A DNA stretch of 63,189 nt, counting the filler. It is 7 parts of 7 records of this genome, joined end to end, with 100 filler letters (N's around TTAATTAATTAA, not from the genome) between each part and the next. Parts side by side here need not be neighbours in the genome. Positions count along the whole stretch, not along the records: positions 15,762 to 22,669 come from SRR22947727_141; 6 more parts are not named here. The stretch is one strand, 5' to 3'. The notes beneath the pieces were generated by a model. That model made no database searches, was not told where the DNA came from, and saw nothing but the letters and a program-made list of their open reading frames with translations. The translations under genes were made by a program, and so were the position numbers. This document shows, piece by piece, positions 6,681 to 54,714 of this stretch (positions are counted from its first letter, which is position 1; every line of letters begins with the position of its first letter).

Positions 6681-7986
6681 TGTGAGAAATAAATCTAGCC
6701 ATTAATTTGTAATTATTAAATTTTTTATAAGGATTAAAAAGATCAAAATGAACTGGAAAACTTGTTTTACATATTGATTTAAGTAATGAGATGGTATTGT
6801 TTTTATTATTTTTTTTAGTATTTTTTGTAAAATTATTTAATTTTTTTGCCACATCTGAGAGAGTGATTACTTTCGTAACACCTCTAAAATTTGAAAAAGG
6901 AGAATTAGATGTTACAAAAATATTTTTCCCAGAAAATATAGACTCAAAAATAATTGTTCCAGTAATAGAAAATACTGCATTACATTTATTTAACAAATAA
7001 TTCATGCTTATTGATGGTGGTATTAAAATTACATTAGAAATTCTTTTTATTCTTTTATATGTCCTTATATTCAATTCAAATTTAAATTTAGGATTAGCTT
7101 TTACCGCCAAAACATAATTTATTTTTTTCAACGATTTAGATAGTTCTAAAATTGTTTGTTCTTGATTTATATAAGGATAGCTCCAAACGTCTGTTGACAC
7201 TTCAGGCTGCATTTGTAAAGGAAATAAAATTACTTTTTTTTTTTCTAAAATATCAAAAGTTTTTGCTTTGTTGATATATGAGTCAAATCCCCATTTTGCT
7301 TTAAGATATGATCTTTCTAAACGTGAACTTACAAATTTTATTGGACTAGGTGTATTGAATTTTTCACCAAATATATATGAAAAAAAAACATAAAACTGAA
7401 AATATAAATTTTTAAACTTTTGTAAAAAATTAGTTTTTTTCATATAATCTAATTCGTATTTATTATTGTTTATTAAATTTGCTATTTTTTTAATTTTTAA
7501 ATTATTGGTAGGTATTTTTTTGTTTAATATTGGATTTAAAGTATTATATTTATAAAAGCTAGTTCTATACTTTGGATATCTTGTGTGACCTGGAAACATG
7601 TATCTAATTTTTATTTTTTTTGAAATATCAATAACCATTAATTCATGAAATAAATCAGCTTCTCCAATTATTAAGGAAGGATTCACTTTTTTAATTATTT
7701 TTTCTATTTCTTTATAATAATATTGGTAATGATCCGTCTTGTTATGATAAAATCTTCTTCCTCTATCGCTATCGTAAATTGCTCTAAATATTTTTTTAGT
7801 ATTTAAATTATATAAATTTTTTTGAGAAGGATATTTAATTATATGATTAACACCAGTTTTAGGAACAAATAAGTTATTTTGAACTAACCAATGTATTTCG
7901 TATTTTTTTGATAATTGTTCTGCTACTTTATCATAATAAAAAATTGCTCTTCTATTTTCTATAAATAACAATTTTTTTTTCATCAT
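6658..7986 (-). CDS. Capsule polysaccharide biosynthesis protein (KpsS/KpsC-like glycosyltransferase)
   Basis: FPLQMQPE.STD, VKANP and SITGTIIFES motifs typical of the Capsule_synth family. Confidence 0.7.
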   Translation of the reverse strand: MMKKKLLFIENRRAIFYYDKVAEQLSKKYEIHWLVQNNLFVPKTGVNHIIKYPSQKNLYNLNTKKIFRAIYDSDRGRRFYHNKTDHYQYYYKEIEKIIKKVNPSLIIGEADLFHELMVIDISKKIKIRYMFPGHTRYPKYRTSFYKYNTLNPILNKKIPTNNLKIKKIANLINNNKYELDYMKKTNFLQKFKNLYFQFYVFFSYIFGEKFNTPSPIKFVSSRLERSYLKAKWGFDSYINKAKTFDILEKKKVILFPLQMQPEVSTDVWSYPYINQEQTILELSKSLKKINYVLAVKANPKFKFELNIRTYKRIKRISNVILIPPSISMNYLLNKCNAVFSITGTIIFESIFSGKNIFVTSNSPFSNFRGVTKVITLSDVAKKLNNFTKNTKKNNKNNTISLLKSICKTSFPVHFDLFNPYKKFNNYKLMARFISHIEKYEKF

Positions 7987-8054
7987 TAAGATATAATATT
8001 CACAATAAATAGATTATTAAATTTATTTATTACAATAAATTGATATAAAAAAAA

Positions 8055-9188
8055 ATGATTAAAAAGAAAATCCTTATAGTTTTTGGTACAAGACCTGAAG
8101 CTATTAAGTTAGCACCCTTGATTCTTAAGCTTAAAACTAATAAAAAATTTTTAACAAAAATTTGTATTACATCTCAACATAAAAAGATGCTTCATCAAGT
8201 TTTAAAATTGTTTGAAATAAAACCTGATTATGATTTAGATATTATGAAAAAAGATCAAAATTTATCTCATATTACTGCTAATATTTTAAATAGATTTAAT
8301 TTTACGCTTGATAGATTTAAACCTGATCTAGTAATTGTTCATGGAGACACATCAACTACCATGGCTTGTTCACTGTCTGCATTTTATAAAAAAATTGATA
8401 TTGCTCATGTTGAAGCTGGTTTAAGAACTGGCAGTATGTATTCACCATATCCAGAAGAAATTAATAGAAAAGTTACTTCAAATTTAACTAAATTTCATTT
8501 TGCACCAACTTATAAAGCCAAAAAAAATCTCTTGGACGAGGGTTATAAAAAAAAAAATATTTTAATTACAGGGAACACCGTTATTGACTCTGTTTTATGG
8601 ATGAATAAAAAGATAAAATCAAAAAAAAAGATAAATGAAATTCTTGAAAAAAAATTCCCTTTTTTAAAAAAAAATAAAAAAAAAATCATTCTAGTTACAT
8701 GTCATCGTAGAGAGAATTTTGGTAAAAGTTTTGAAAATATTTGTAACTCAATTTTACAGATTTCAAAAAGAAATAAAAATTGTTTAATAGTTTATCCTAT
8801 TCATTTAAACCCAAATATTAAGATACCAGTTAATAGAATTTTAAATAATATTGATAATATCTTATTGTTAGATCCGCTTAACTACATGGAGTTTATTTTT
8901 TTAATGAAAAAGTCACACCTAATTTTGACAGACTCAGGTGGAATTCAAGAAGAAGCACCAACTCTTAATAAACCAGTTTTAATAATGAGGGATCATACTG
9001 AAAGGCCAGAGGCAATTAGAGCAGGTACATCAAAAATGGTTGGAACTAAACCTAAAAGAATTATATACGAAGTTGAAAAACTTCTCAAAAATAATTTAAT
9101 ATATTCAAATATGTCTAAAATTAAAAATCCTTTTGGTGATGGAAATGCTTCAAAAAAAATTATTCAATATTTAGAAAAATATATTTAA
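8055..9188 (+). CDS. wecB: UDP-N-acetylglucosamine 2-epimerase (non-hydrolysing)
   Basis: FGTRPEAIK, HGDT, HVEAGLR, PEE.NR, TDSGGIQEEAP, ERPE. Confidence 0.97.
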   Translation: MIKKKILIVFGTRPEAIKLAPLILKLKTNKKFLTKICITSQHKKMLHQVLKLFEIKPDYDLDIMKKDQNLSHITANILNRFNFTLDRFKPDLVIVHGDTSTTMACSLSAFYKKIDIAHVEAGLRTGSMYSPYPEEINRKVTSNLTKFHFAPTYKAKKNLLDEGYKKKNILITGNTVIDSVLWMNKKIKSKKKINEILEKKFPFLKKNKKKIILVTCHRRENFGKSFENICNSILQISKRNKNCLIVYPIHLNPNIKIPVNRILNNIDNILLLDPLNYMEFIFLMKKSHLILTDSGGIQEEAPTLNKPVLIMRDHTERPEAIRAGTSKMVGTKPKRIIYEVEKLLKNNLIYSNMSKIKNPFGDGNASKKIIQYLEKYI

Positions 9189-10429
9189 TGAAAACAATTT
9201 CTATAATAGGTCTTGGGTATATTGGCATGCCTTTAGCGGTAATGTTAGCAGATAAAAATAAAAAGATTTATGGATATGATTCAGATTTAAAAGTTATTGA
9301 AGATATTAAAAAAAATAAAATTAAGATAAAAGAATCTGATTTTTTACAAAAATTTAATAACCAGAAAATTAAACGTAATTTTATTCCATTAAATAAAATA
9401 ATAAAATCTGATGTTTATATTATAGCAGTTCCAACTCCATTTAATGAAAAAACACTTAAACCTGTTATTTCTGCTGTAAAAAATTCTATCTTTAAGATTT
9501 TAAATTTATTAGAACCAAATAATTTGATTATAATAGAGTCCACTTGTCCTGTAGGAACTACAGAGTTAATTGAAAAACTAATATATAAAAAAAGAATTGA
9601 TTTAAAAAAAAATTCTATAAACATAGCTTATTGTCCCGAAAGGATATTACCTGGCAATACATTGAATGAATTAATTTATAACGATAGGATTATTGGAGGT
9701 ATTAATAACAAAAGCTCATTATATGCTAAAAAAATTTATAAATTATTTGTCAAGGGAAATTTAAAAATTACTGACGCAAAAACAGCTGAAATGTGTAAAT
9801 TGGTTGAAAATACTTATAGAGATATAAACATAGCTTATGCAAATGAACTATCAATGATTTCTAATAAACTTGGAATAAATGTTTGGAAATTAATTGATTT
9901 AGCCAATCTTCATCCTAGAGTTAACATTTTGAAACCAGGACCAGGTGTTGGTGGACACTGTATAGCTGTTGATCCATGGTTTTTAATTAGTCAAAACGTT
10001 AAATTATCAAAATTAATATATACAGCTCGTAAAATAAATAATGATAAAACTAACTGGGTTATTGATAATATTAATAAAAAAATTAGATTTTTAGAAAAAA
10101 AAAAAAATAATTTTAAAAAAATTACCGTAAGTTTTTTTGGTGCAACATATAAACCAAACTCTGAAGATTTAAGAGAAAGCCCATCAATTAAAATTATTAA
10201 TCACTTTTTAAGTATGAAAAAATTAAATACCTCTGTTGTTGAACCAAATATTGACCAAAAATCTTTTAAACATCTTAATTTGACAAATACTAAAAATGCG
10301 ATAAAAAAATCTGATATAGTTGTGATCTTGGTAAATCATAAAGAGTTTAAAAATTTAAAAATCTTCAATAAAAATAATACAAAAACGGAAATACTAGATA
10401 TTTCAGGTTTGCATAATTCTTTAAAATAA
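9188..10429 (+). CDS. wecC: UDP-N-acetylmannosamine dehydrogenase
   Basis: GLGYIG, AVPTP, ESTCPVGTT, CPERILPG, KLVENTYRD, PGPGVGGHC; translationally coupled to wecB. Confidence 0.93.
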   Translation: MKTISIIGLGYIGMPLAVMLADKNKKIYGYDSDLKVIEDIKKNKIKIKESDFLQKFNNQKIKRNFIPLNKIIKSDVYIIAVPTPFNEKTLKPVISAVKNSIFKILNLLEPNNLIIIESTCPVGTTELIEKLIYKKRIDLKKNSINIAYCPERILPGNTLNELIYNDRIIGGINNKSSLYAKKIYKLFVKGNLKITDAKTAEMCKLVENTYRDINIAYANELSMISNKLGINVWKLIDLANLHPRVNILKPGPGVGGHCIAVDPWFLISQNVKLSKLIYTARKINNDKTNWVIDNINKKIRFLEKKKNNFKKITVSFFGATYKPNSEDLRESPSIKIINHFLSMKKLNTSVVEPNIDQKSFKHLNLTNTKNAIKKSDIVVILVNHKEFKNLKIFNKNNTKTEILDISGLHNSLK

Positions 10430-12334
10430 ATGTGTGGAATTAATGGAATAATTAAATCTCAAATAGACAAAAATGATATAAATAAAGTCTATGAGATGAA
10501 CAAAATACTATCTCATAGAGGACCTGACTTTTCAGATATTTGGTCGAATGAAAATATTGTCTTAGGTCATACGCGTTTATCAATTATTGATTTGAATCCT
10601 AGAAGCAATCAACCTTTTGCAAAAGATAACTTAGTAATAGTTTTTAATGGTGAAATTTATAATTACCTAGAACTAAAAAAAGAACTGTCAGATGTAAATT
10701 TTTCAACAAATTCTGATACAGAGGTAATTTTAGAGCTTTGGAAAAAATATAAGGAAAAATGTTTCAATATGCTTAGGGGCATGTTTGCTTTTGCAATATA
10801 TGATACAAATACAAGAGAAACCGTAATTGCAAGAGATCATTTTGGAATAAAGCCATTACATTATTATATAGATGAAGAAAAATTAATTTTTTCATCTGAA
10901 ATAAAATCTATAAAAGAAACACTTAACATCAAGTTAAGTATATCTAATGAAGCAATATTATCTTCAGTTTATTATTGCTGGGTGCCTGAGGAAAATTGTA
11001 TCTTTGATGAAATAAAAAAACTTCTTCCAGGACAATATATTACAGTAAAAGATAATATATCTAAAATTAATAATTATTGGTCTAGCAATGTTTTAATTGA
11101 AAGCAAAACTACTTTTAATGATTTAGATAAAAGTATTGAAAAATTAAATTATACATTGGAAGATAGTGTGGAAAAACATTTAATTTCCGATGTACCAGTA
11201 AACGCTTTTTTGTCTGGTGGTTTAGATTCCTCACTTCTAGTTGCTATGGCAAAAAAAAAAATTGATCAGATTGATTGTTTTAATATTAAATTTACAGATA
11301 TAGATTCTAAATTTGATGCTAGCAGCGATGATTCTTTTTATGCAGAAAAAGTTTCAAAATATTTAAATGTTAAATTAAATACTCTTGAGGTAAAGCCTGA
11401 TTTATCAAATTTATTAGAAAAAATAGTTTATCATTTAGATGAGCCGGTGGGTGATTCTGCTGCTATTAATACTTATTTAATATGTGAAAATGCAAAAAAA
11501 AATGGTGTTAAAGTTTTATTATCTGGGATGGGAAGTGATGAAATATTTTCTGGTTATAGAAAACATCAAGCATTAAAAATTAAATCTAATTTAAGTTTTA
11601 TTCCTACTATCTTTTTTAATTACTCAAATAAGATAATGCAAAATTTACCAGTTAGATCTAATTCAAGTGGTATAAAATTTATTAGATGGGTTAAAAGATT
11701 TCTTAACATTTTAAAGTATTCCAAAAATAATAAATCATTTTTTAGAAGTTATACCTATTATGATATTGGTGAAGCAAAGGAAATATTTACTTTTGAAACA
11801 AGTGAATTGATAAAATCAACTTTTGATAAGTTTGATAAAAAATTTTCTTATGCAGAAAATAAAAGAAATTTAATAGATGCTATGAATTTTGTAGATTTAA
11901 ATGATTTTATGGTTTCTCTTAATTTAAAATACACTGATTTAGCAAGTATGGCAGCTTCTACTGAAGTAAGAGTACCTTTTATAGACAGGGAGGTAATTAA
12001 GCTAGCATTTCAAATTAATGATAAATTAAAAATTAGAGGTAATAATCAAAAATACATTTTAAAAAAAGTAGCTGAGCACTGGCTTCCAAATGAAATAATA
12101 TATAGACCAAAATCTGGGTTTACTTTGCCATTAAGAGCATGGATAAATAAAGATCTTAAATCCCTAGTTTCTGAGTATATTTTGTCAGAAAATGGTATTA
12201 AAAAAAGAAATATTTTTAAAGATACTTTTTTAAAGAAAATAATTGAGGATGAATATAACAATGTGGAAGACAATTCTCAAAAAATTTGGCAACTTCTTAC
12301 ACTAGAACAATGGTTTAGAAATAATGAAAAATAG
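10430..12334 (+). CDS. asnB: Asparagine synthase-family glutamine amidotransferase (probable sugar amidotransferase)
   Basis: MCGI N-terminus, HRGPD, RLSIID, FNGEIYN, LSGGLDSS, EVRVPF; glycan-locus context. Confidence 0.92.
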   Translation: MCGINGIIKSQIDKNDINKVYEMNKILSHRGPDFSDIWSNENIVLGHTRLSIIDLNPRSNQPFAKDNLVIVFNGEIYNYLELKKELSDVNFSTNSDTEVILELWKKYKEKCFNMLRGMFAFAIYDTNTRETVIARDHFGIKPLHYYIDEEKLIFSSEIKSIKETLNIKLSISNEAILSSVYYCWVPEENCIFDEIKKLLPGQYITVKDNISKINNYWSSNVLIESKTTFNDLDKSIEKLNYTLEDSVEKHLISDVPVNAFLSGGLDSSLLVAMAKKKIDQIDCFNIKFTDIDSKFDASSDDSFYAEKVSKYLNVKLNTLEVKPDLSNLLEKIVYHLDEPVGDSAAINTYLICENAKKNGVKVLLSGMGSDEIFSGYRKHQALKIKSNLSFIPTIFFNYSNKIMQNLPVRSNSSGIKFIRWVKRFLNILKYSKNNKSFFRSYTYYDIGEAKEIFTFETSELIKSTFDKFDKKFSYAENKRNLIDAMNFVDLNDFMVSLNLKYTDLASMAASTEVRVPFIDREVIKLAFQINDKLKIRGNNQKYILKKVAEHWLPNEIIYRPKSGFTLPLRAWINKDLKSLVSEYILSENGIKKRNIFKDTFLKKIIEDEYNNVEDNSQKIWQLLTLEQWFRNNEK

Positions 12335-12359
12335 AATAAAAAAATGATACAATATTAAT

Positions 12360-14525
12360 ATGAAGCAAATTTTACAAAATAATAATACTGGTAAAATCAA
12401 AATTGAAGAAGTTCCTATTCCTCAGCTGCAAGATAATTTCATTATAGTTCAAAATTTATTTTCTCTAATTAGCTCAGGAACAGAAAAAACTAAAATAGAA
12501 CTTTCAAAAAAAAATTTATTACAAAAAGCTAAGGCTAGACCTGATTTAGTTCAGAAAGTATTAAAAAAATTGAAAACTGATGGAATAATGGAAACATTTA
12601 ATACAGTAAAATCAAAATTAGATACACCAGTTCCTTTAGGATATAGCACTGCTGGGAAAGTTTTGAGTGTTGGAGGTCATGTTAAAGGAATATCCCCGGG
12701 AGATCTTGTTGCTTGTGCCGGTGCTGGTTATGCTAATCATGCTGAAGTAATTACTGTTCCTATAAATCTAGTTTCAAAAATTCCAAATGGAGTAACTTTA
12801 GAAGAAGCTTCTTTTACTACGTTGGGTGCAATTGCATTACAAGGATGCAGATTATCTAAACCATTAATTGGAGAAACTTTTTTGGTAATTGGTCAAGGTC
12901 TAATAGGACAACTTGCTTCTCAAATTTTAAATGCAAATGGTTGTAGAGTTATAGCTTCTGATTTGAATGACAATCTGATCAATTATTTAAAATCAAAAAA
13001 TTTAGAAACTTATAAATCTGATGAAAATTTAGAAAAAATTATTGAAGAAATAACTGATGGAAATGGTGTTGATGGTGTTTTAATCTGTGCTGGAAGCACT
13101 AGCAATTCTTTAATAGAATTGGCGGGAAGAGTTACAAGAGAAAAAGGTAGAGTTGTAGTTGTTGGTGCTGTAAAAATGGATATTCCTCGTGAAGATTATT
13201 ATAAAAAAGAAATAGAAATTATTATATCAAGATCTTACGGTCCAGGTAGATACGATCCATATTACGAAGAAAAAGGAAACGATTATCCTTTAGCTTATGT
13301 AAGGTTTACTGAAAAACGTAACATGGAAACTTTTCTTTCTTTAATTAATCAAAAAAAAATTAATGTGAAAGAATTGATTACGCATGAATTTCTATTTAGC
13401 GATGTAAATAAAGCTTATGATCTATTAAATCCAAAAAATGATCAATTTCATCTTGGAATATTGCTCAAGTATCAAGATAATAAATTTTTTGAAAATAAAA
13501 ATCAAACTTCAACAAACAAAGTAAAAATTTTTTCAAATAATAAAATATCATTATCATTAATTGGAGCTGGAAATTATGCTAAGGGAAAATTGCTTCCTAT
13601 ATTAAAATCAGATCCAAATGTAGAATTTAATGGAATAGTTACAAATAATGGTTCAAATTCTTTATTTATTAAAGAGACATATAACTTTTTATTCAATACC
13701 AGTAACATTGATGAGCTATTAGATGATAAAACTAACGCAATTATGATTACAACTTTGCATAATACTCATTCAGATTATGTTGTTAAGTCATTAAACGCGA
13801 ACAAACATGTATACGTTGAAAAACCATTAGCATTGAATGTTGAAGAATTAAAAAAAGTAAATCAAGCATTCCTCACTAACAATAGCTCTTTATTAGTAGG
13901 ATTTAATAGAAATTTTTCTTCATTAACCAAAAAAGTTTTAGATTTATTTAAAAATATAGACAAAAAAATTATACATATAAGAGTTAACGCTGGTAAAATA
14001 GATAAAGACCATTGGACACAAAACCCTAAAATCGGCGGCGGTAGGTTAATTGGTGAGGGCTGCCATTTCATATCTCTTGCCTCATGTTTGGCATCCAGTA
14101 AAATTTCTAAAGTTTATTCAAATTCAATTAATTCAAATAATTCAGAAATTATATGTAATGATAATTTTAATATTTCAGTTAAATTTGAAAATGGTAGTAT
14201 TGCAAATATTGTTTACACGTCTGCTGGTTCTGTAGCACTAGAAAAAGAATATATTGAGGTTTTTGGTGGTGGTTGTACAGCTAAAATTATAGATTTTCAA
14301 AAACTTGAGCTGTATCAAGATAATAAAAATATTTTTAGTAAAAAATATTCTTCACAAGATAAGGGGCAAAAACACATGATTTCATCATGGCTTAAAGATA
14401 TTAAATTAAATAAAATTTCAATGAGCTATGATTTTATTATAAACACAAGTTTGTCTACTGTACTTTCTGCTGAATCTTTAATGACAGGTGAACCCGTAGA
14501 CGTAAATTTAAATATATTAGATTAA
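12360..14525 (+). CDS. Bi-domain oxidoreductase (MDR/Zn-ADH-like plus Gfo/Idh/MocA)
   Basis: SLISSGTE, PLGYS..G, SRSYGPGRYD N-terminal domain; IGAGNY, HVYVEKP, VGFNR, GEGCHF C-terminal domain. Confidence 0.9.
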   Translation: MKQILQNNNTGKIKIEEVPIPQLQDNFIIVQNLFSLISSGTEKTKIELSKKNLLQKAKARPDLVQKVLKKLKTDGIMETFNTVKSKLDTPVPLGYSTAGKVLSVGGHVKGISPGDLVACAGAGYANHAEVITVPINLVSKIPNGVTLEEASFTTLGAIALQGCRLSKPLIGETFLVIGQGLIGQLASQILNANGCRVIASDLNDNLINYLKSKNLETYKSDENLEKIIEEITDGNGVDGVLICAGSTSNSLIELAGRVTREKGRVVVVGAVKMDIPREDYYKKEIEIIISRSYGPGRYDPYYEEKGNDYPLAYVRFTEKRNMETFLSLINQKKINVKELITHEFLFSDVNKAYDLLNPKNDQFHLGILLKYQDNKFFENKNQTSTNKVKIFSNNKISLSLIGAGNYAKGKLLPILKSDPNVEFNGIVTNNGSNSLFIKETYNFLFNTSNIDELLDDKTNAIMITTLHNTHSDYVVKSLNANKHVYVEKPLALNVEELKKVNQAFLTNNSSLLVGFNRNFSSLTKKVLDLFKNIDKKIIHIRVNAGKIDKDHWTQNPKIGGGRLIGEGCHFISLASCLASSKISKVYSNSINSNNSEIICNDNFNISVKFENGSIANIVYTSAGSVALEKEYIEVFGGGCTAKIIDFQKLELYQDNKNIFSKKYSSQDKGQKHMISSWLKDIKLNKISMSYDFIINTSLSTVLSAESLMTGEPVDVNLNILD

Positions 14526-15661: not shown

Positions 15662-15761
15662 NNNNNNNNNNNNNNNNNNNNNNNNNNNNNNNNNNNNNNN
15701 NNNNNTTAATTAATTAANNNNNNNNNNNNNNNNNNNNNNNNNNNNNNNNNNNNNNNNNNNN
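15662..15761. other. Artificial contig spacer
   Basis: 44 N + TTAATTAATTAA + 44 N. Confidence 0.99.
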
Positions 15762-16286
15762 ACCTCTATTTGGCATACTTGCAAGACCCCAAACAAAAGC
15801 TTTGTCTCCAGCTTCTAGACCACAAACTTCAACACCTTTTTTTCCAAGGTTAAAACCAGCAGCAAATAGGTCAGCACCTGCATAACCAAAACCAGTAGTC
15901 TTAAGCTCAGCTTCTAAATCAGGAAGGGGAGTGTTCATAGTAGTAACTACTATTCCCATTTCTCTTGCTTCATTAATAATAGGTCTCATTGCAGCATCAC
16001 CAGGAAAGCCATAAATAGCAATTCCATCTGGTTGAAGGGCAACAGCTTCTTTGAACTGTTTGATCATGATTTCTGAATTCCACTGAGACCAGTAATAATC
16101 AACATCACAACCAGTGTGTTCAGCAGCAGCTACTGCACCGTTATAAACAATAGTTCCAAATGGTCCACCTTCTGGTCCACCTGGAAAAAAGATAAATTTC
16201 TTATCACAACTGTAGTCATTTTTAGCAATTGCTGAAGTTGATGCAAAAGCAAAAAAAAGGGCTACTAAAGCTAAAATTTTTTTCAT
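15762..16286 (-). CDS. Sugar ABC transporter substrate-binding protein (RbsB-like), truncated by contig end
   Basis: Signal peptide ending AIA, FGTIVYNGAVAAA, EAVALQPDGIAI, GIVVTTMN, GYAGADLFAAG; GGAGG RBS upstream. Confidence 0.88.
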
Positions 16287-16331
16287 TTTTCCTCCATGAA
16301 TTTTATTTTATATATAATTTTTAATTTTATA

Positions 16332-16352
16332 TGTGAAAATGATTTTTTTACA
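16332..16352. promoter_or_regulatory. Candidate operator (imperfect inverted repeat) in divergent promoter region
   Basis: TGTGAAAA-TGATT-TTTTTACA, 7 of 8 arm positions pair; AT-rich background weakens it. Confidence 0.3.
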
Positions 16353-16478
16353 AACTTAATCTAAAAAAAGATCAAAAAATCATAATGCGACAAAAAAACT
16401 ATTAATTTTAACAAATTAGTTAATTAACACACCTAGTTTAAAGTTTGATATTTGGTTAAAAGATGATAATTTAATATT

Positions 16479-17459
16479 ATGGATGTAGATTTAAACAGTT
16501 GGTATAAACCTAATATAGATAAAAAAGAATTTAAAAAACTGTGCAAAAAATCTGACTGGCAAGGTTTTAAACACATGATCATTTATTTTTCATTTTTAGG
16601 ATTATTTGGTTATTTGGCGTTTGCAACATGGGGTACATGGTGGTCTTTATTATTTTTTATAATATACGGAAATATTTGGGGATGTAGTGATGCGATATGG
16701 CATGAAACTGGTCATAGAACAGCATTTAAATCAAAGTTTTGGAATGATTTTTTTTATTACATTGCCAGCTTTATGGATAATTTTGAGCCAATAAGATGGA
16801 GATATTCTCATTATCATCACCATACGTATACAATATTCTCTGATCCTGTAGATTTTGAAATTCATGTTAAAAAACCTACTGATTTAATAATTTTCTTCAC
16901 CCACTATATACCTTTTTCAGGTTTTATATTTTTTAAAAATTCTCTTCAGTGGGAAACAATTAAACATGCATTTGGTGTTACAACAGAAGTAATGAAAGTA
17001 TGTATCCCTGAAAATGAAAGATCAAAATGTCGTTGGTCAGCAAGAAGTCATGTTTTTATTTGGTTAGTTACAATTTTCTGCTCAATTTATTTTCAATCTT
17101 GGTTACCTGTGTTGTTTATTGTACTTCCAAATTTTTATGGCAAAACGTTAGTTATGTTAATGGGGCTAACGCAGCACGCAGGTTTACAAGAAGATGTAAA
17201 AGATCACCGTTTAACGACAAGAACAGTTCATTTAAATCCAATTTTTAGTTTTCTATATTGGCATATGGAGTACCATGTTGAACACCATATGTTTCCTCAG
17301 GTTCCATCTTACAATTTAAAAAAATTACATGCATTAATTAAAGATCAAATGCCTCCCGCAAGAAAGGGATTATGGGGAGCTTATAAAGAAATTATTCCAG
17401 CTCTAGTGAAACAAGCTAAAGATCCAAATTATAAAATTTCTTTAGTTATACCAACTTAA
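16479..17459 (+). CDS. mocD: Membrane di-iron oxygenase, fatty-acid-desaturase family (MocD-like), copy 1
   Basis: His boxes HETGH, HYHHH, HVEHH plus TQHAGL; adjacent to Rieske ferredoxin and reductase as in rhizobial mocDEF. Confidence 0.85.
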   Translation: MDVDLNSWYKPNIDKKEFKKLCKKSDWQGFKHMIIYFSFLGLFGYLAFATWGTWWSLLFFIIYGNIWGCSDAIWHETGHRTAFKSKFWNDFFYYIASFMDNFEPIRWRYSHYHHHTYTIFSDPVDFEIHVKKPTDLIIFFTHYIPFSGFIFFKNSLQWETIKHAFGVTTEVMKVCIPENERSKCRWSARSHVFIWLVTIFCSIYFQSWLPVLFIVLPNFYGKTLVMLMGLTQHAGLQEDVKDHRLTTRTVHLNPIFSFLYWHMEYHVEHHMFPQVPSYNLKKLHALIKDQMPPARKGLWGAYKEIIPALVKQAKDPNYKISLVIPT

Positions 17460-17538
17460 AGCTATACTTCGAAAAAAAATTTATAATAAAAATTATTATA
17501 TTTTTTATGAGTATGACAGAAGGAACATTGGTTAAAAA

Positions 17539-18774
17539 ATGAATTCTCTTAAAAAAATATTAATTATAGGTAGTGGTCAGGCTGCTATTTATGCGGCAAG
17601 TGAATTTAGAAAACATGATAAAGATTCTGCAGTTACAATATTTGGTAATGAAAATTACCATCCTTATGAAAGACCCCCTCTGTCAAAAGAATTTCTTATG
17701 GATAAAAAAAAGGAAGATGAATTTTTATTTTTTTCAAAAAATTTTTTTGATGATCAAAATGTTAGTATTATTAATAAAACAATAGACTCAGTTGATTTTA
17801 AAAATAAATTTTTAATATCTTTTGATAATAATAAATATTTTTATGATAAACTTTTAATTACAACAGGCTCCACTAATAGAAAAATAGAAATTGATAAAGA
17901 AATCGATAATGAGATTTATTATTTAAGAAATTTAGATGAGGCTAATAAAATTAAAAAGAAAGCTTCTGAAGTAAATAACATAGCTATTATAGGTGGGGGA
18001 TTTATAGGCTTAGAAATCGCATCTTCCCTAAACCAGCAAAATAAATCAGTCAATATAATAGAAATTTCTAATCAATTAATGGGAAGAATAATCCCTTCTC
18101 CCATTGCAAATTTAGTAAAAGTCGAACATGAAAAGCATGGTAATAAAATACATCTAGATAGTAAAATTAAAAGCATTGAAAAAATTAATGATACTTTTAA
18201 AATTTTACTTGAGAATGATCATATTATTGAAACAGAAATGATTATTGGGGGTATTGGCTCTATTCCAACTACAGATTTGTTTAATAACTCAGATTTAGAA
18301 TTAAAAAATGGAATTTTAACAAATAAATATAATCAAACATCAGTTGAAAATGTTTATGCGGCGGGAGATGTGTCAAATTTCTACCACCCACTATATCAAA
18401 AAAATATTAGACTTGAGTCTTATCAACATGCCCAAAATCAGGGAATAAATGCTGGAAAGAATATTGCTGGAATAAAATCAGAATATTTATCTGTTCCTTG
18501 GATGTGGTCTGATCAATTTGATTTAAATTTGCAACTCACTGGACTATGTGATGATTATCATGAAATAATTGAAAGAGGTGAGGATATAGAAAATGGAATT
18601 ATTCATTTTTTCATTAAGGATGACAAAATAGTTGGGGCATGTGGTTTGGGCTTAGTAGGTAAAGTTGGGCGAGATATTAGAATTGCTTCAAAATTAATTG
18701 AAAAACAAACTATTGTTGATAAAAAAATTCTATCTGATCAAAATCAAAAATTAAATCCTCTTTTAAAAAAATAG
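17539..18774 (+). CDS. mocF: Ferredoxin-NAD(+) reductase (MocF-like)
   Basis: IIGSGQA, PYERPPLSK, IIGGGFIGLEIA, VYAAGD, PWMWSDQFD. Confidence 0.9.
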   Translation: MNSLKKILIIGSGQAAIYAASEFRKHDKDSAVTIFGNENYHPYERPPLSKEFLMDKKKEDEFLFFSKNFFDDQNVSIINKTIDSVDFKNKFLISFDNNKYFYDKLLITTGSTNRKIEIDKEIDNEIYYLRNLDEANKIKKKASEVNNIAIIGGGFIGLEIASSLNQQNKSVNIIEISNQLMGRIIPSPIANLVKVEHEKHGNKIHLDSKIKSIEKINDTFKILLENDHIIETEMIIGGIGSIPTTDLFNNSDLELKNGILTNKYNQTSVENVYAAGDVSNFYHPLYQKNIRLESYQHAQNQGINAGKNIAGIKSEYLSVPWMWSDQFDLNLQLTGLCDDYHEIIERGEDIENGIIHFFIKDDKIVGACGLGLVGKVGRDIRIASKLIEKQTIVDKKILSDQNQKLNPLLKK

Positions 18775-18830
18775 TCAAAAATTATTATTTCTATTTATTT
18801 TTTAGATTTTATTATTATATAAACAACATT

Positions 18831-19148
18831 ATGGTAGAAGAAAATTGGATAGAAGTTGGCAAAGTAGATAGTATTGATATGGAGGATCTAATTAGGTTCG
18901 ATCATGCTGAAAAAACCTTTTGCGTTTATCGGATAGAAGATGGTTTTTATGCTACAGACGGTATTTGTACGCATGAAGAGGTTCACCTAGAAGATGGTCT
19001 GGTGATGGATGATGAGATAGAATGTCCAATGCATCAAGGGATTTTTAATATTAAAACGGGAGAAGCAATAAGCCCACCTGCTTGTGATGATTTAAAAACA
19101 TATCCAGTAAAAGTTGAAAATGATTTAGTTTACATTAATATACCCTAA
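18831..19148 (+). CDS. mocE: Rieske [2Fe-2S] ferredoxin (MocE-like)
   Basis: CTHEEVHL and IECPMH Rieske ligand motifs, 105 aa. Confidence 0.93.
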   Translation: MVEENWIEVGKVDSIDMEDLIRFDHAEKTFCVYRIEDGFYATDGICTHEEVHLEDGLVMDDEIECPMHQGIFNIKTGEAISPPACDDLKTYPVKVENDLVYINIP

Positions 19149-19165
19149 ATTTTTGGGAGATATTT

Positions 19166-19993
19166 ATGAGTAGAAAAAAATTAACAGTTCACGATTATTT
19201 ACAGTGTAAAGGTAAGAGACAACTCAGTGTCATGTTTGTACATAATGCTGATGAAGCAGCTGCAGCTGAAGAAGCTGGCATTGATATGATTTGCACTTCT
19301 CATGATGCTCCACAATTTGGAATTTACAATTCATTTGATGAATTAAAAAGAATTCGTGCAGCTGCACCAACATGCTTTATGCAATCTGGAGGAGCAGTTC
19401 GAGTTGCTTCAGAATATGAAGCAATGAAGTTATCACATAAATATTTAGATATTGGCGCTGATGTAATTTATGGAGGTAACTGGAGTTATAAGTGGCTTAG
19501 AGCTCTAAGAGATGAATTTGTTCCAATTAATAGTCATGTGGGTTTAGTGCCAGGAATTGCTACATGGATTGGTGGATTTAAAGCTCAAGGAAAAACAGCT
19601 GATTCAGCAATGAAAATTTTACAAAACACAATTGAATTACAAGAAGCTGGTGTTGTGGGCGTTGAATTAGAAGTTGTTCCTCCAAAGGTGGCAGAAGTGA
19701 TAACCAAAAAAGTAGATATTATGACTTTGTCTATGGGAAGTGGATCAGGTTGTGATGGGCAGTATTTATTTGCTAATGATGTACTTGGGTATACCGAAGG
19801 TCATACACCTAGACATGCAAGAATTTATAGAGATTTCAAAAAAGAATTTGCAAAAATTCAAGTAGAGAGAGTTAATGCTTTTAAAGAATTTCATAATGAT
19901 ACTGTTAATAAAAAATTTGATGATCCAAAAATTACTGTTGGAATTGATGAAAAAGAATTTGAAAATTTTTTAAAACTTTCTGAAAAATATTGA
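19166..19993 (+). CDS. PanB-fold (ketopantoate hydroxymethyltransferase-like) protein, copy 1, degenerate active site
   Basis: HVGLVP, GGFKAQGK, ELEVVP, SMGSGSGCDGQ, DVLG..HTPRHA present; GDS, D.PF and VK.EG motifs absent. Confidence 0.85.
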   Translation: MSRKKLTVHDYLQCKGKRQLSVMFVHNADEAAAAEEAGIDMICTSHDAPQFGIYNSFDELKRIRAAAPTCFMQSGGAVRVASEYEAMKLSHKYLDIGADVIYGGNWSYKWLRALRDEFVPINSHVGLVPGIATWIGGFKAQGKTADSAMKILQNTIELQEAGVVGVELEVVPPKVAEVITKKVDIMTLSMGSGSGCDGQYLFANDVLGYTEGHTPRHARIYRDFKKEFAKIQVERVNAFKEFHNDTVNKKFDDPKITVGIDEKEFENFLKLSEKY

Positions 19994-19999
19994 TTGTAA

Positions 20000-21013
20000 A
20001 TGCTTGCTGGTGATGTTGATCTGAATGCTTGGTACAAACCTGATATAGATAAAAAAATCTTAAAAGAATTATCTAGGCGTTCAGATATAAAAGGCACAAT
20101 TGATATTTCTTTATTCATTTTAATTCTCTCATTATCTGGATATTTCTCAATAGTAACCTGGGGGTCTTGGTTATTTATTCCAGCGATTCTACTTTATGGG
20201 AATATTTTTTATTGCAAAATTATAAGCATCCAGCACGAAACTAATCACGAGACATATTTTAAATCAAGAAAGCTTAATAAATTTTTTTATGAGATTACTT
20301 CTTTTCTGGGAGGTTTTGAGTCTGTAAGATGGAAATGGAGTCATTTTCATCATCACACTTACACAATTTTTACTCATGAAGAAGTTTACGATTATGAAAA
20401 TAATAGTCCAAGACCAACTGAGCCAATAAGATTTTTATTAAATTTTTTACCTTTAGGGCCGATCATCAATATTCAAAAAGTTAGACACTTCACACATTTT
20501 GAAATTATAAAACATTCTTTAGGTCTTATTTCTAATGTTGTAAAAATTACTGTTCCTAAAAAAGAAATTAATAAAGTTATAAACATGTCTCGTATTTATG
20601 TGTCACTATGGATACTTATTATTGGAATCTCTTTACTTTTAAATTCTTGGCTACCTGTTATTATGATCATCTTACCACCATTCTATGGCAATACTATCTT
20701 AATGATTTGCGGGATGACACAACATGCAGGTTTGGCAGATAATGTGAAGGATCATCGAAAAAGTACTCGTACAGTTATTTTAAATCCCTTTTTTAGTTTT
20801 TTATATTCTAATATGGAATATCATATTGAACATCACATCTTTCCAAAAATACCATGTCACAATTTAAAAAAATTTCACAAAACAATTAAAGATCAAATGC
20901 CGCCTCCTAAACGAGGAGTAATAGACGCGTATCAATCTATAATCCCAGCTATTTTTAAACAAGCGAAAGATAAAAATTACTTTATTGATGTTAAAATACC
21001 AACTACAAATTAA
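20000..21013 (+). CDS. Membrane di-iron oxygenase, fatty-acid-desaturase family (MocD-like), copy 2
   Basis: His boxes HETNH, HFHHH, HIEHH, TQHAGL; N-terminus DVDLNAWYKPDIDKK nearly matches copy 1. Confidence 0.85.
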   Translation: MLAGDVDLNAWYKPDIDKKILKELSRRSDIKGTIDISLFILILSLSGYFSIVTWGSWLFIPAILLYGNIFYCKIISIQHETNHETYFKSRKLNKFFYEITSFLGGFESVRWKWSHFHHHTYTIFTHEEVYDYENNSPRPTEPIRFLLNFLPLGPIINIQKVRHFTHFEIIKHSLGLISNVVKITVPKKEINKVINMSRIYVSLWILIIGISLLLNSWLPVIMIILPPFYGNTILMICGMTQHAGLADNVKDHRKSTRTVILNPFFSFLYSNMEYHIEHHIFPKIPCHNLKKFHKTIKDQMPPPKRGVIDAYQSIIPAIFKQAKDKNYFIDVKIPTTN

Positions 21014-21015
21014 AT

Positions 21016-21849
21016 ATGAGAAAAAAAATAACAGTTAAAGATTTACAAAATTTTAAAGGTAAAAAAAAGTTAGTATGTATTCTTATCAAGAACATAAAAG
21101 AAGCACTAGCTGCCGATAAAGTTGGTTTCGAAATGTTAGCAACTGGTGTGGCTGGAGAATACAAAAATGATGATGGTCATCCTGAGTTTGATGAATTAGT
21201 AAAAATGAGAGAAGCAGCACCTACGGCTTTTATGCACTGTGGGGCGCCTGATAGTCTTATACCTACAATAGATGAAGCAAAAAAGTTTTCTTTTAAGATA
21301 TTAGAACATGGTTTTGATATGCTTTATTGTAATACGAGGTTCGATCTCATTAAAGAATTATATAAGGAAGGCATTCCTTGTTTGGGCCATGTTGGGTTAG
21401 TGCCTCCAAAAAGAACTTGGACAGGAGGATTTGTAGCTGTTGGAAAAACTGCCTCTGAAGCAATGTGGATTTATGATCAATGTTTAAAGATCCAGGATGC
21501 TGGTGGTGTTGCAATTGAAATGGAGTGTGTTCCTTATAAAATTGCAGAGGCAATTTCTAAAAAAATCAAACCGACAGTAATGTCTATGGGTAGTGGGCCT
21601 GGATGTGATGTTGAGTATGTATTTGGGTGTGACATATTGGGAACAACCAAAGGTCATATTCCGCGACATGCTAAAAAATATAGGGATTTTCAACAAGAAT
21701 TTGATAGATTACAACAAGAAAGAGAGAATGCTTTTCAAGAATTTTATGATGATGTTCATGCAGGAGGTTTTCCAGAGAAAAAAAATATTGTTGAAATTAA
21801 TGAAAATGAATTAGATACATTCTTAAATAGATTAGAACAAAGAAGTTAA
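21016..21849 (+). CDS. PanB-fold protein, copy 2, degenerate active site
   Basis: GHVGLVP, GGFVAVGK, EMECVP, SMGSGPGCD, DILG..GHIPRHAKKY; lacks GDS and VK.EG. Confidence 0.85.
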   Translation: MRKKITVKDLQNFKGKKKLVCILIKNIKEALAADKVGFEMLATGVAGEYKNDDGHPEFDELVKMREAAPTAFMHCGAPDSLIPTIDEAKKFSFKILEHGFDMLYCNTRFDLIKELYKEGIPCLGHVGLVPPKRTWTGGFVAVGKTASEAMWIYDQCLKIQDAGGVAIEMECVPYKIAEAISKKIKPTVMSMGSGPGCDVEYVFGCDILGTTKGHIPRHAKKYRDFQQEFDRLQQERENAFQEFYDDVHAGGFPEKKNIVEINENELDTFLNRLEQRS

Positions 21850-21850
21850 T

Positions 21851-22669
21851 ATGAGCGAAAAAAATTTAAATGATGAAAATTTTGGAACTAGAGACAAAAG
21901 AGGGCATTGGAAACCTTTTGGAACTATTGCTGTAAATCCACCCAAATCAATTTTTTTTAACCCAATTAAACTTATAAAATACTTTTTTAAATTCCCAGGA
22001 ATATTTTTTCCATGGACATTTGTTTTTGGTTTTATAACTGTTCTTACTTACTTATTTCTTACACCTTCATTAGAGACAATGAAAACATTTCAAGTTGATT
22101 GGATAGCATTCATTTTTTTTAGAAATGCAGCAATTATCTTATTATGGACTGGTTTTTTTCACCTGAGATTAAAAAATCAAGGAACTTCCTTTAAGTATAA
22201 CCCAAGACCGCTAGAAGAGAATAATCCAACTTTTTTATTTAATAACCAAACTAAAGATAATTTATTTTATACTTTTTGCAGCGCTATTCCTTTGTGGACA
22301 GCTTATGAGGTAGTTACTTTTTGGGCTTTTGCAAATCAAGTAATTCCATATGTTAGCTGGGAGATATATCCCGTATATTGTTGTTTTTTATTTTTTCTTG
22401 TTCCTTTTATAAGAGATGCGCATTTCTACTTAACACATAGATTACTTCATTGGGGACCTTTGTATAGAATTGCTCACAAAGTGCATCATCGTAATACCAA
22501 TACTGGAGCATGGTCTGGCATGTCTATGCACCCTATAGAGCACATTCTTTATTTTTCTGGAATTCTCATTCATTGGATTATACCTTCACATCCCCTTGTA
22601 GCAATGTATCATGTTTTCCATGCAGGGTTAGCTCCAACGCCAGGTCATACTGGATATGAAAAAATGACT
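21851..22669 (+). CDS. Sterol desaturase/fatty acid hydroxylase-family di-iron enzyme, truncated by contig end
   Basis: HFYLTHRLLH, HKVHH, SMHPIEH, GHTGYE motifs. Confidence 0.88.
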
Positions 22670-22769
22670 NNNNNNNNNNNNNNNNNNNNNNNNNNNNNNN
22701 NNNNNNNNNNNNNTTAATTAATTAANNNNNNNNNNNNNNNNNNNNNNNNNNNNNNNNNNNNNNNNNNNN
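22670..22769. other. Artificial contig spacer
   Basis: 44 N + TTAATTAATTAA + 44 N. Confidence 0.99.
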
Positions 22770-35714: not shown

Positions 35715-35814
35715 NNNNNNNNNNNNNNNNNNNNNNNNNNNNNNNNNNNNNNNNNNNNTTAATTAATTAANNNNNNNNNNNNNNNNNNNNNNNNNNNNNN
35801 NNNNNNNNNNNNNN
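35715..35814. other. Artificial contig spacer
   Basis: 44 N + TTAATTAATTAA + 44 N. Confidence 0.99.
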
Positions 35815-41467: not shown

Positions 41468-41567
41468 NNNNNNNNNNNNNNNNNNNNNNNNNNNNNNNNN
41501 NNNNNNNNNNNTTAATTAATTAANNNNNNNNNNNNNNNNNNNNNNNNNNNNNNNNNNNNNNNNNNNN
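41468..41567. other. Artificial contig spacer
   Basis: 44 N + TTAATTAATTAA + 44 N. Confidence 0.99.
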
Positions 41568-49283: not shown

Positions 49284-49383
49284 NNNNNNNNNNNNNNNNN
49301 NNNNNNNNNNNNNNNNNNNNNNNNNNNTTAATTAATTAANNNNNNNNNNNNNNNNNNNNNNNNNNNNNNNNNNNNNNNNNNNN
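49284..49383. other. Artificial contig spacer
   Basis: 44 N + TTAATTAATTAA + 44 N. Confidence 0.99.
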
Positions 49384-54614: not shown

Positions 54615-54714
54615 NNNNNNNNNNNNNNNNNNNNNNNNNNNNNNNNNNNNNNNNNNNNTTAATTAATTAANNNNNNNNNNNNNNNNNNNNNNNNNNNNNN
54701 NNNNNNNNNNNNNN
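54615..54714. other. Artificial contig spacer
   Basis: 44 N + TTAATTAATTAA + 44 N. Confidence 0.99.

Follow-up and report, generated by a model that had tools for sequence, protein, structure and literature searches.

Membrane di-iron oxygenases interleaved with PanB-fold proteins in a SAR11-type operon: a candidate system for demethylating sugars

What does a marine bacterium do with an operon in which membrane oxygenases alternate with relatives of PanB, an enzyme of pantothenate synthesis? Such a gene run fills one contig (SRR22947727_141; 6,908 bp) at positions 15762-22669 of the 63,189-nucleotide stretch of DNA analyzed here (the window). The host is a marine SAR11-type bacterium, and the operon encodes three membrane iron oxygenases (des1, des2 and fah) and two diverged PanB-like proteins (PL1 and PL2), linked to sugar uptake. 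A preliminary description of the sequence had proposed that this module strips methyl groups from imported methylated cyclitols or sugars and captures the one-carbon (C1) unit on tetrahydrofolate (THF). We lean towards a narrower version of that proposal, in which the operon would be a catabolic module for methylated sugars, with oxidative O-demethylation and transfer of the C1 unit to THF via the PanB-like proteins.

The seven same-strand genes and the divergent binding-protein gene named in the preliminary description were all found by domain searches (Table 1), and the last five genes, from the Rieske ferredoxin gene to fah, are separated by 17, 6, 2 and 1 bp, in agreement with the gaps of 1-17 bp given earlier for the second half of the run. 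The histidine boxes of des1 are intact (HETGH, HHH, HVEHH); those of des2, which is 49% identical to des1, read HETNH, HHH and HIEHH, and fah carries HRLLH, HKVHH and HYIHH. All three oxygenases have hydrophobic segments, which the PanB-likes, the reductase and the ferredoxin lack. The contig ends, marked by artificial linkers on both sides, truncate both the binding protein (175 of ~326 residues) and fah (273 of ~335 residues); a full-length relative of fah scores 72.4 bits on PF04116, against the lower score of the truncated window copy (Table 1).

The gene arrangement is not a product of chance, since it recurs in 72 related loci and in distant bacteria. Within a protein collection, 2,015 of 4,669 candidates are related to PL1 at E ≤ 0.001; the best 120 share 81-99% identity with it, and the named ones among these are from Pelagibacteraceae. 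The 72 distinct loci come from a scan of reference genomes, nearly all of them SAR11-type single-cell or metagenome assemblies, together with one complete Pelagibacter genome. Here des1 is present in 65 loci, the reductase gene in 66, the Rieske ferredoxin gene in 67, des2 in 64, fah in 66 and the binding-protein gene in 64; PL2 occurs in only 19, so the window represents a rarer form with a second PanB-like gene. The commonest order (37 loci) is binding protein, des1, reductase, Rieske ferredoxin, PL1, des2, fah, lactonase, dehydratase. Upstream, the relatives carry an importer made up of the ~326-residue binding protein, a one-domain ATP-binding cassette (ABC) ATPase and a sugar-type permease. 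Downstream, beyond the point at which the window contig ends, stand the two enzymes that a non-phosphorylative aldose oxidation route would call for, an SMP-30-type lactonase (57 loci) and an IlvD/EDD-family dehydratase (55 loci). The dehydratase scores 916.6 bits on PRK06131, and with 832.6 bits it stays just short of the cut-off of 882 set for the L-arabinonate dehydratase model. A short-chain dehydrogenase and a GlcD-like FAD oxidase are also encoded near the locus in relatives.

The number of oxygenases per PanB-like protein varies, from 3:1 in most loci to 3:2 in the window and 1:3 in a divergent form (L066), where an importer stands beside fah, PL1, PL2, a DHDPS-family aldolase, a dehydratase, a dehydrogenase and a third PanB-like, and where des, Rieske ferredoxin and reductase genes are missing; a MocE-type ferredoxin is encoded ~55 kb away in that genome. 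In L067-L069, fah likewise precedes PL1. Across 301 sampled Pelagibacterales, 60 have a PanB-like match at E ≤ 1e-30, and the PL1 orthologue was recovered only in the centre genome, the other matches being ~34-39% identical to PL1; the operon thus belongs to a subset of SAR11.

The module also occurs outside SAR11. des1 matches 298 plasmid records, mostly from Rhizobium and Sinorhizobium, at ~42% identity, and the set takes the form of a four-gene operon next to a LacI regulator gene both in R. leguminosarum WSM1325 and on S. meliloti pSymB, its genes being annotated as fatty acid desaturase family, MocE-family ferredoxin, FAD oxidoreductase and ‘3-methyl-2-oxobutanoate hydroxymethyltransferase’. 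The same set stands in a rhizopine locus carried by a plasmid of Rhizobium indicum: a MocR regulator scoring 739 bits (NCBI rhizopine equivalog cut-off, 650) is found next to a run of FA desaturase, MocE (178 bits), FAD reductase, PanB-like and purU, an arrangement that agrees with the published mocCABRDEF layout. The PanB-like protein of this locus scores 102.3 bits on the panB equivalog TIGR00222 (cut-off 207.55), purU (330.6 bits; cut-off 285.95) follows it after a 9-bp gap, and the block adjoins iolE, two Gfo/Idh/MocA genes and a sugar binding protein gene. At least 80% of the mocR-to-purU block is present in 14 plasmid records, and the mocD-to-purU part in many Sinorhizobium records.

PurU, a formyl-THF deformylase, recycles formyl-THF. 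A second case of PurU next to a PanB-like protein is found within a complete iol set (IolC, IolD, IolB) unrelated to the moc locus, on a contig (G153) that also encodes two FA_hydroxylases, a LacI regulator, a sugar importer, three GFO_IDH_MocA proteins, two AP_endonuc_2 proteins and a Rieske ferredoxin. Among 144 loci, PurU lies near a PanB-like only in L136 and L144. Its position beside PanB-like genes in two unrelated loci, one of them certified as a rhizopine locus by MocR, argues for folate C1 flow and strengthens the folate link claimed in the preliminary description. Plasmids of Gemmobacter, Neotabrizicola and Mesorhizobium pair a PanB-like with a ‘sterol desaturase family protein’, and Gemmobacter has a MocE ferredoxin and iolG as well. 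In a study of the MocR regulon (PMC5320631), ‘hydroxymethyltransferase’ denotes serine hydroxymethyltransferase, which is unrelated; neither this study nor one on pinitol (PMC9788770) proved to bear on the operon.

Pairing of PanB-likes with oxygenases extends further. An oxygenase of the PhyH, FA_desaturase or FA_hydroxylase type adjoins the PanB-like in each of five other annotated SAR11 loci (Table 1), and two related SAR11 clusters (L070 and L082) contain GFO_IDH_MocA and AP_endonuc_2 genes. A PanB-like was detected at E ≤ 1e-30 in 22 of 401 sampled Alphaproteobacteria. Among 20 such loci retrieved, 8 have a des or fah gene next to the PanB-like, in most cases accompanied by a Rieske ferredoxin, a reductase or both. 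Such oxygenase genes number only 4-8 in four of the paired genomes (3.5-5.5 Mb), from which rough arithmetic places chance adjacency at ~2% per locus. One des-Rieske-reductase-PanB-like set (L132) adjoins an OpuAC-type betaine binding protein. The neighborhood survey that the preliminary description had called for therefore finds mocD/E/F, sterol-desaturase and iol genes together with PanB-likes, the moc locus and iol clusters included, and the conservation of PanB-likes beside these oxygenases, on which it had staked its proposal, holds in SAR11, other Alphaproteobacteria and rhizobia. A report on the Filomicrobium methanesulfonate monooxygenase locus lists, for this formaldehyde-releasing system, GcvT and a ‘3-methyl-2-oxobutanoate hydroxymethyltransferase’ by name (PMC4433239).

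PL1 and PL2 have the PanB fold (PF02548) and are not PanB. They are 44% identical to each other, share the same residue pattern, and score only 109.8 and 89.7 bits on TIGR00222. An AlphaFold2 model of PL1, built with 33 family members, is confident, with a predicted local distance difference test (pLDDT) value of 92.3, and its ten best Foldseek matches among solved structures are all PanB (3vav, 1m3u and 1oy0 among them; template modeling (TM) score ~0.7, 22-26% identity), followed by structures of the isocitrate-lyase and phosphoenolpyruvate (PEP)-mutase families. In an alignment that combined three canonical proteins (E. coli PanB and two SAR11 PanBs) with 35 PanB-likes, Asp45, Asp84, Lys112 and Glu114 (E. 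coli numbering) are present in all three canonical proteins and in none of the 35 PanB-likes; Ser46 is also gone from all 35, and the position of Glu114 falls within a short deletion. We take the four residues to form the Mg2+/2-oxoacid (ketopantoate) site of E. coli PanB, so that the carbon-acceptor chemistry of PanB is not simply transferable to the PanB-likes. His136, Glu181 and the beta5-beta8 motifs are retained in all 35. In an alignment of 33 sequences, both residues are invariant, as are two gains, an extra Glu two residues before Glu181 (‘ExE’) and a His in a ‘PRH’ motif, while the residues that replace the lost beta2-beta4 ones are conserved within paralog groups and differ between groups.

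Phylogenetically the PanB-likes form one clade apart from canonical PanBs (100/100 support), with long branches between the two. They are not the only PanB-family genes available for pantothenate synthesis in related SAR11 genomes, as G001, G002 and G003 each have one separate canonical panB (255-303 bits) in addition to 3-6 PanB-likes. The class of oxygenase partner (des, fah or PhyH) switches within well-supported PanB-like clades; together with the variable oxygenase:PanB-like ratio, this fits a role for PanB-likes on a small common product. Cleavage of apionate-derived 4-hydroxy-2-oxoacids was considered as a PanB-like activity and dropped, because it would need the keto-acid/Mg2+ site that these proteins have lost.

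From the gene content, the conserved pairing, the PanB fold with its four lost residues and the purU gene beside PanB-likes in two distant loci, we infer the demethylation, the hand-over step, the folate acceptor and the identity of the substrate. The substrate would enter via the sugar-type ABC importer. Its O-methyl groups would then be hydroxylated by the three membrane di-iron oxygenases (two MocD-like, one of the FA_hydroxylase type), the electrons coming from NAD(P)H by way of a chain made up of the MocF-type reductase and the MocE-type Rieske ferredoxin. The soluble PanB-likes would pass the resulting hydroxymethyl (hemiacetal) group, or freed formaldehyde, to THF, yielding 5,10-methylene-THF that SAR11 could oxidize for energy; the retained barrel half, with Glu181, may be the part that handles THF and the C1 unit, and the diverged half would have ceased to bind a keto acid. 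The demethylated aldose would be oxidized by a dehydrogenase, the lactonase and the IlvD/EDD-type dehydratase encoded downstream in relatives. The hand-over could take two forms: free formaldehyde may be the common product, or each PanB-like may recognize the still-attached hydroxymethyl ether of its own substrate, as the paralog-specific residues and the presence of several paralogs in a 1.4-Mb genome suggest. The presence of three oxygenases suggests several methyl positions or several related sugars. Sun et al. report that SAR11 oxidizes C1 units through THF and ascribe slow formaldehyde oxidation in HTCC1062 to a missing activating enzyme (PMC3160333).

The rhizopine locus helps to decide which kind of methyl group is removed, O-methyl (Model A of the preliminary description) or C-methyl (Model B, illustrated there with algal C-methyl inositols). 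The rhizopine 3-O-methyl-scyllo-inosamine carries an O-methyl and no C-methyl, and the simplest reading of its locus would be that the O-methyl is hydroxylated and the C1 unit reaches THF through the PanB-like. Because this archetypal partner substrate is an O-methyl compound, Model A is preferred; the earlier proposal of methyl stripping with C1 capture on THF thus gains from the pairing and the purU context, and its C-methyl inositol version is disfavored. As for the imported compound, a methylated aldose is more likely in SAR11 than a cyclitol, given the conserved lactonase and L-arabinonate-dehydratase-like enzyme downstream, which suit a route through a lactone, a sugar acid and a keto-deoxy acid, and the lack of an IolB match in the one complete genome that bears the operon (G001). 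The sugar half of the original ‘cyclitols or sugars’ therefore fits SAR11 better than the cyclitol half. The binding protein is of little help here. A full-length relative has the rhizopine solute-binding protein model as its best family match, at 80.8 bits (cut-off 420), and the best match in the PDB scores 57.7 bits, with distant sugar binders only, so the ligand cannot be read off; the available part of Clifton et al. contains nothing on this protein (PMC11485210).

The oxygenase system itself is that of the MocDEF operon, with an FA_desaturase-family oxygenase, a MocE-family Rieske ferredoxin and an FAD reductase in SAR11 as well. Identities to the MocR-linked moc locus are 39% for des1 (42% to the R. 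leguminosarum homologue), 36% for des2, 62% for the ferredoxin and 33% for the reductase, and the PanB-like directly after mocF is 40-42% identical to PL1 and PL2. The SAR11 loci differ in lacking purU as well as MocR, mocA, mocB and mocC (none of these four found in L001, L003, L056 and L066), in having three oxygenases instead of one, in the swapped order of ferredoxin and reductase, and in continuing with a lactonase and a sugar-acid dehydratase where the rhizobial locus has iol genes.

Folate-coupled demethylation is otherwise known from DmdA, LigM and the sarcosine and dimethylglycine oxidases (with purU and folD), which use GcvT-fold THF-binding domains. The proposed logic is the same, a nutrient methyl being removed and then carried on THF for oxidation, and purU likewise belongs to the operon in the rhizobial and G153 versions; the presumed THF-binding partner here differs in being a PanB-derived TIM barrel, separate from the oxygenase. 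Marine Bacteroidota O-demethylate 6-O-methyl-D-galactose with a cytochrome P450, a ferredoxin and a reductase. This is likewise a three-component oxidative O-demethylation of an algal methyl sugar with release of C1, carried out by a haem P450 rather than a membrane di-iron oxygenase; we know of no PanB-like partner of that system.

Other explanations of the operon have to be weighed. The PanB-likes might have no C1 role and act as aldolases, isomerases or lyases on sugar-derived keto acids from the neighboring dehydratase, while the oxygenases hydroxylate or desaturate the sugar (e.g., deoxy-sugar hydroxylation). PanB belongs to the PEP/pyruvate TIM-barrel superfamily, to which the next-best isocitrate-lyase and PEP-mutase folds point; a dehydratase follows the operon in most loci and, in a distant genome (L124), comes directly after the PanB-like; and some members of the FA_desaturase family hydroxylate small polar molecules, with des2 scoring 54.9 bits on the model of the arginine hydroxylase GntB. 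We nevertheless consider this unlikely: the metal/2-oxoacid residues expected of an aldolase are lost, the L066-type locus already has a DHDPS-family aldolase beside its dehydratase, purU adjoins PanB-likes in two unrelated loci, and PanB-like/oxygenase pairs occur where no dehydratase is present. Alternatively, the mechanism may be as proposed and the SAR11 substrate a methylated cyclitol (rhizopine-, pinitol- or ononitol-like). The rhizopine archetype, like two other clusters, lies among iol genes, the best family match of the binding protein is a rhizopine model, GFO_IDH_MocA and AP_endonuc_2 genes occur in L070 and L082, and IolB (PF04962) was found in three of five SAR11 genomes searched (G002, G003 and G403), where it lies on separate contigs or at a large distance from the operon. 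Neither the incomplete G404 nor the complete, operon-bearing G001 yielded an IolB match, however; the score of the binding protein is far under the cut-off; and most loci continue with enzymes that act on aldoses, including the dehydratase that scores just 832.6 against 882. A cyclitol substrate thus appears improbable and ranks below the reading without a C1 role.

Model B, in which C-methyl branches would be hydroxylated and a PanB-like retro-aldol reaction would move the C-hydroxymethyl onto THF in the reverse of PanB, ranks lower again and seems to us doubtful. It has an appealing logic, as PanB chemistry forms and cleaves C-C bonds and the retention of PanB-likes would be explained if an enzyme is needed to remove the stable C-CH2OH group; the persistence in a streamlined genome of several diverged paralogs, each type with its own residues on the side of the barrel facing the substrate, agrees with it, as does a trio of genes in L070 described below. 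Its difficulties are that the MocR-certified rhizopine locus has the same PanB-like and purU pair for a substrate without C-methyl, that all 35 PanB-likes lack the four residues taken to hold Mg2+ and the 2-oxoacid enolate, and that O-methyl sugars are far from matched in frequency by the rare C-methyl sugars and inositols. That ordinary lipid-modifying desaturases and a sterol/sphingolipid-type hydroxylase merely adjoin unrelated genes is suggested by Pfam family names and weak matches to DesA/DesB desaturase models (≤37 bits against cut-offs of 500). The tight operon with Rieske ferredoxin, reductase and soluble PanB-likes, the conserved divergent sugar importer and downstream sugar-acid enzymes, and the same module within the rhizopine locus make such an origin extremely improbable.

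Several points also weigh against the preferred reading of O-demethylation with C1 transfer to THF. Demethylation of rhizopine by MocDEF was reportedly only proposed by Bahar et al. in 1998, and we found no assay of any enzyme of the module, MocD included, in the literature. Hemiacetals shed formaldehyde and formaldehyde condenses with THF, both spontaneously, so a dedicated enzyme is not strictly required. Generic C1 capture is also less favored than substrate-specific roles by 3-6 deeply diverged PanB-like paralogs in a streamlined 1.4-Mb genome and by the paralog-specific conservation of the beta2-beta4 residues. The oxygenase:PanB-like ratio is not fixed, to the extent that L066 lacks des, Rieske ferredoxin and reductase altogether, and THF binding by PanB-likes is deduced solely from their descent from PanB. 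In the alphaproteobacterial sample, the other 12 of 20 loci have no di-iron oxygenase neighbor (one has a 2-oxoglutarate-Fe(II) oxygenase and several look housekeeping-like), and one well-supported PanB-like clade of five loci (L127-L131) has no oxygenase neighbor in any. Finally, no PurU above cut-off was found in five SAR11 genomes searched; this may equally be neutral, since Sun et al. describe another route of THF oxidation.

Metatranscriptome contigs from four seawater libraries (four studies; ≥90% match) cover 24-28 of 30 bins and six of the seven genes, single contigs spanning the PL1/des2, des2/PL2 and PL2/fah junctions; positions ~17578-18216 in the reductase gene are almost without such contigs at 90% likeness. 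As contigs from RNA libraries without a silent control stretch, they give only a weak hint that the operon is transcribed.

Some observations on the wider set of loci are recorded for completeness. HxlR-type regulator genes lie between reductase and ferredoxin in the operon of the complete Pelagibacter genome (L003) and near another PanB-like/PhyH pair (L083); the founding member of the family presumably senses formaldehyde, and, the family being broad, this is only a hint for these regulators. In L070, genes for a xylose-isomerase-like TIM barrel, an FGGY kinase and a split transketolase adjoin a des/fah/PhyH/PanB-like cluster with two sugar importers, a trio that we take to resemble the transketolase pathway of the branched sugar apiose (apulose). 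The clade L127-L131 (G393, G122, G164, G277 and G306) has the motifs ‘FMAFSVPL’ and ‘MCQW’ and may have a different role. A 4.8-Mb alphaproteobacterium (G158; loci L118-L122) shows an unusual expansion, with 21 FA_desaturase and 22 FA_hydroxylase matches and 5 PanB-likes. Two small low-GC genomes (L125 and L126) have a des1-like gene (62-64% identity) and a PanB-like beside DUF1800/DUF1501; L125, the one annotated of the two, also encodes the alpha subunit of a Rieske ring-hydroxylating oxygenase and has no sugar genes.

At least seven separately assembled contigs, joined end to end, make up the window, and gene neighborhood across the linkers is artificial. The six linkers are identical 100-bp sequences (15662-15761, 22670-22769, 35715-35814, 41468-41567, 49284-49383 and 54615-54714), whose central 12-mer occurs six times in the window against 0.53 expected. 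With linkers on both sides of the operon contig, the polysaccharide-synthesis genes to its left and the glycosyltransferase genes to its right are not true neighbors. The left contig carries sugar-nucleotide/polysaccharide genes (UDP-glucose dehydrogenase, asparagine synthase) and a fusion of a zinc-type alcohol dehydrogenase half with a GFO_IDH_MocA oxidoreductase half. Near its end are three open reading frames that look like fragments of a single gene for an NAD-dependent sugar epimerase, perhaps frameshifted or broken, with an N-terminal ‘VTGGAGYIG’ in the last; a flavoprotein start is cut off by the contig end (Table 1).

Table 1. Features of the operon contig, its artificial limits, the left-hand contig and other PanB-like loci. 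Positions are those of the window, except where a locus is named.
Feature	Position	Strand	Remarks
721-residue fusion protein (left contig)	12360-14525	+	
Three epimerase-like open reading frames (left contig end)	14710-15552	-	49-50 residues each
Flavoprotein start (left contig end)	15576-15661	+	VVVIGGGVIGCSVAYHLA; truncated
Artificial contig linker	15662-15761	none	44 N + TTAATTAATTAA + 44 N; left limit of contig
Peripla_BP_4 sugar-type periplasmic solute-binding protein	15762-16286	-	N-terminal 175 residues, signal peptide; truncated
Divergent intergenic region, importer genes vs oxygenase operon	16287-16478		192 bp, A+T-rich
des1, MocD-like membrane di-iron oxygenase (FA_desaturase)	16479-17459	+	PF00487 119.6 bits
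MocF-type FAD-dependent ferredoxin-NAD(P) reductase	17539-18774	+	Pyr_redox_2 + Reductase_C
MocE-family Rieske [2Fe-2S] ferredoxin	18831-19148	+	TIGR02377 138.5 bits (cut-off 136.15)
PL1, PanB-like 1	19166-19993	+	PF02548 131.4 bits
des2, second MocD-like di-iron oxygenase	20000-21013	+	PF00487 122.8 bits
PL2, PanB-like 2	21016-21849	+	PF02548 114.8 bits
fah, FA_hydroxylase/‘sterol desaturase’ membrane di-iron oxygenase	21851-22669	+	PF04116 48.8 bits; truncated
Artificial contig linker	22670-22769	none	Right limit of contig
HxlR-type regulator gene	L003 9194-9559	-	
HxlR-type regulator gene	L083 10963-11379	-	
L056	16475-18165		PanB-like with PhyH and CUT1 sugar importer
L070, trio of sugar genes	16433-20637		
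L081	5901-10041		Two PanB-likes among three PhyH-type dioxygenases, with aminotransferases
L082			PanB-like with three FA_desaturases, FA_hydroxylase, PhyH, second Peripla_BP_4 importer, GFO_IDH_MocA dehydrogenase
L083	6730-10132		PanB-like between GMC oxidoreductase and PhyH
L084	5033-9044		PanB-like with PhyH, FA_desaturase and two GH4 glycosidases
L125, L126	~7136-13159		

The oxygenase system of the operon is already known as MocDEF; its PanB-derived partner and the spread of that partner in SAR11 appear to be undescribed. In keeping with the preliminary description, which knew of no pathway pairing these families, none was found in the literature searched, nor was any work linking rhizopine with tetrahydrofolate or PanB with SAR11 or Pelagibacter (subscription journals and supplements lay outside the search); the only matches were a broad review, the methanesulfonate report named above and the unrelated use of ‘hydroxymethyltransferase’. 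The rhizopine catabolic locus, which is used in synthetic plant-microbe signaling, has two conserved genes after mocF, encoding the PanB-like and PurU, of which we found no mention in the rhizopine literature examined (supplements outside the search).

The PanB-like family stands a fair chance of representing a new enzyme activity. More tentatively than for the operon as a whole, we suggest that it descends from PanB, has shed the keto-acid site and may act as a THF-dependent acceptor of hydroxymethyl groups or formaldehyde from oxidative demethylases, serving di-iron, PhyH-type and possibly Rieske oxygenases; it would have been overlooked in the rhizopine locus, and its 3-6 copies in SAR11 would harvest methyls from methylated sugars in seawater. 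To our knowledge, no enzyme that loads formaldehyde onto THF has been recognized, and the PanB-likes are a candidate answer to this old gap; if the proposal is true, the family would be the THF counterpart of the formaldehyde-activating enzymes that serve other C1 carriers. SAR11 are among the most abundant marine bacteria, with a known strength in the oxidation of methyl groups through folate, and methylated sugars have been documented in the dissolved organic matter of the sea. If the proposal holds, methylated sugars would join the fuels of SAR11, with several loci per small genome devoted to them.

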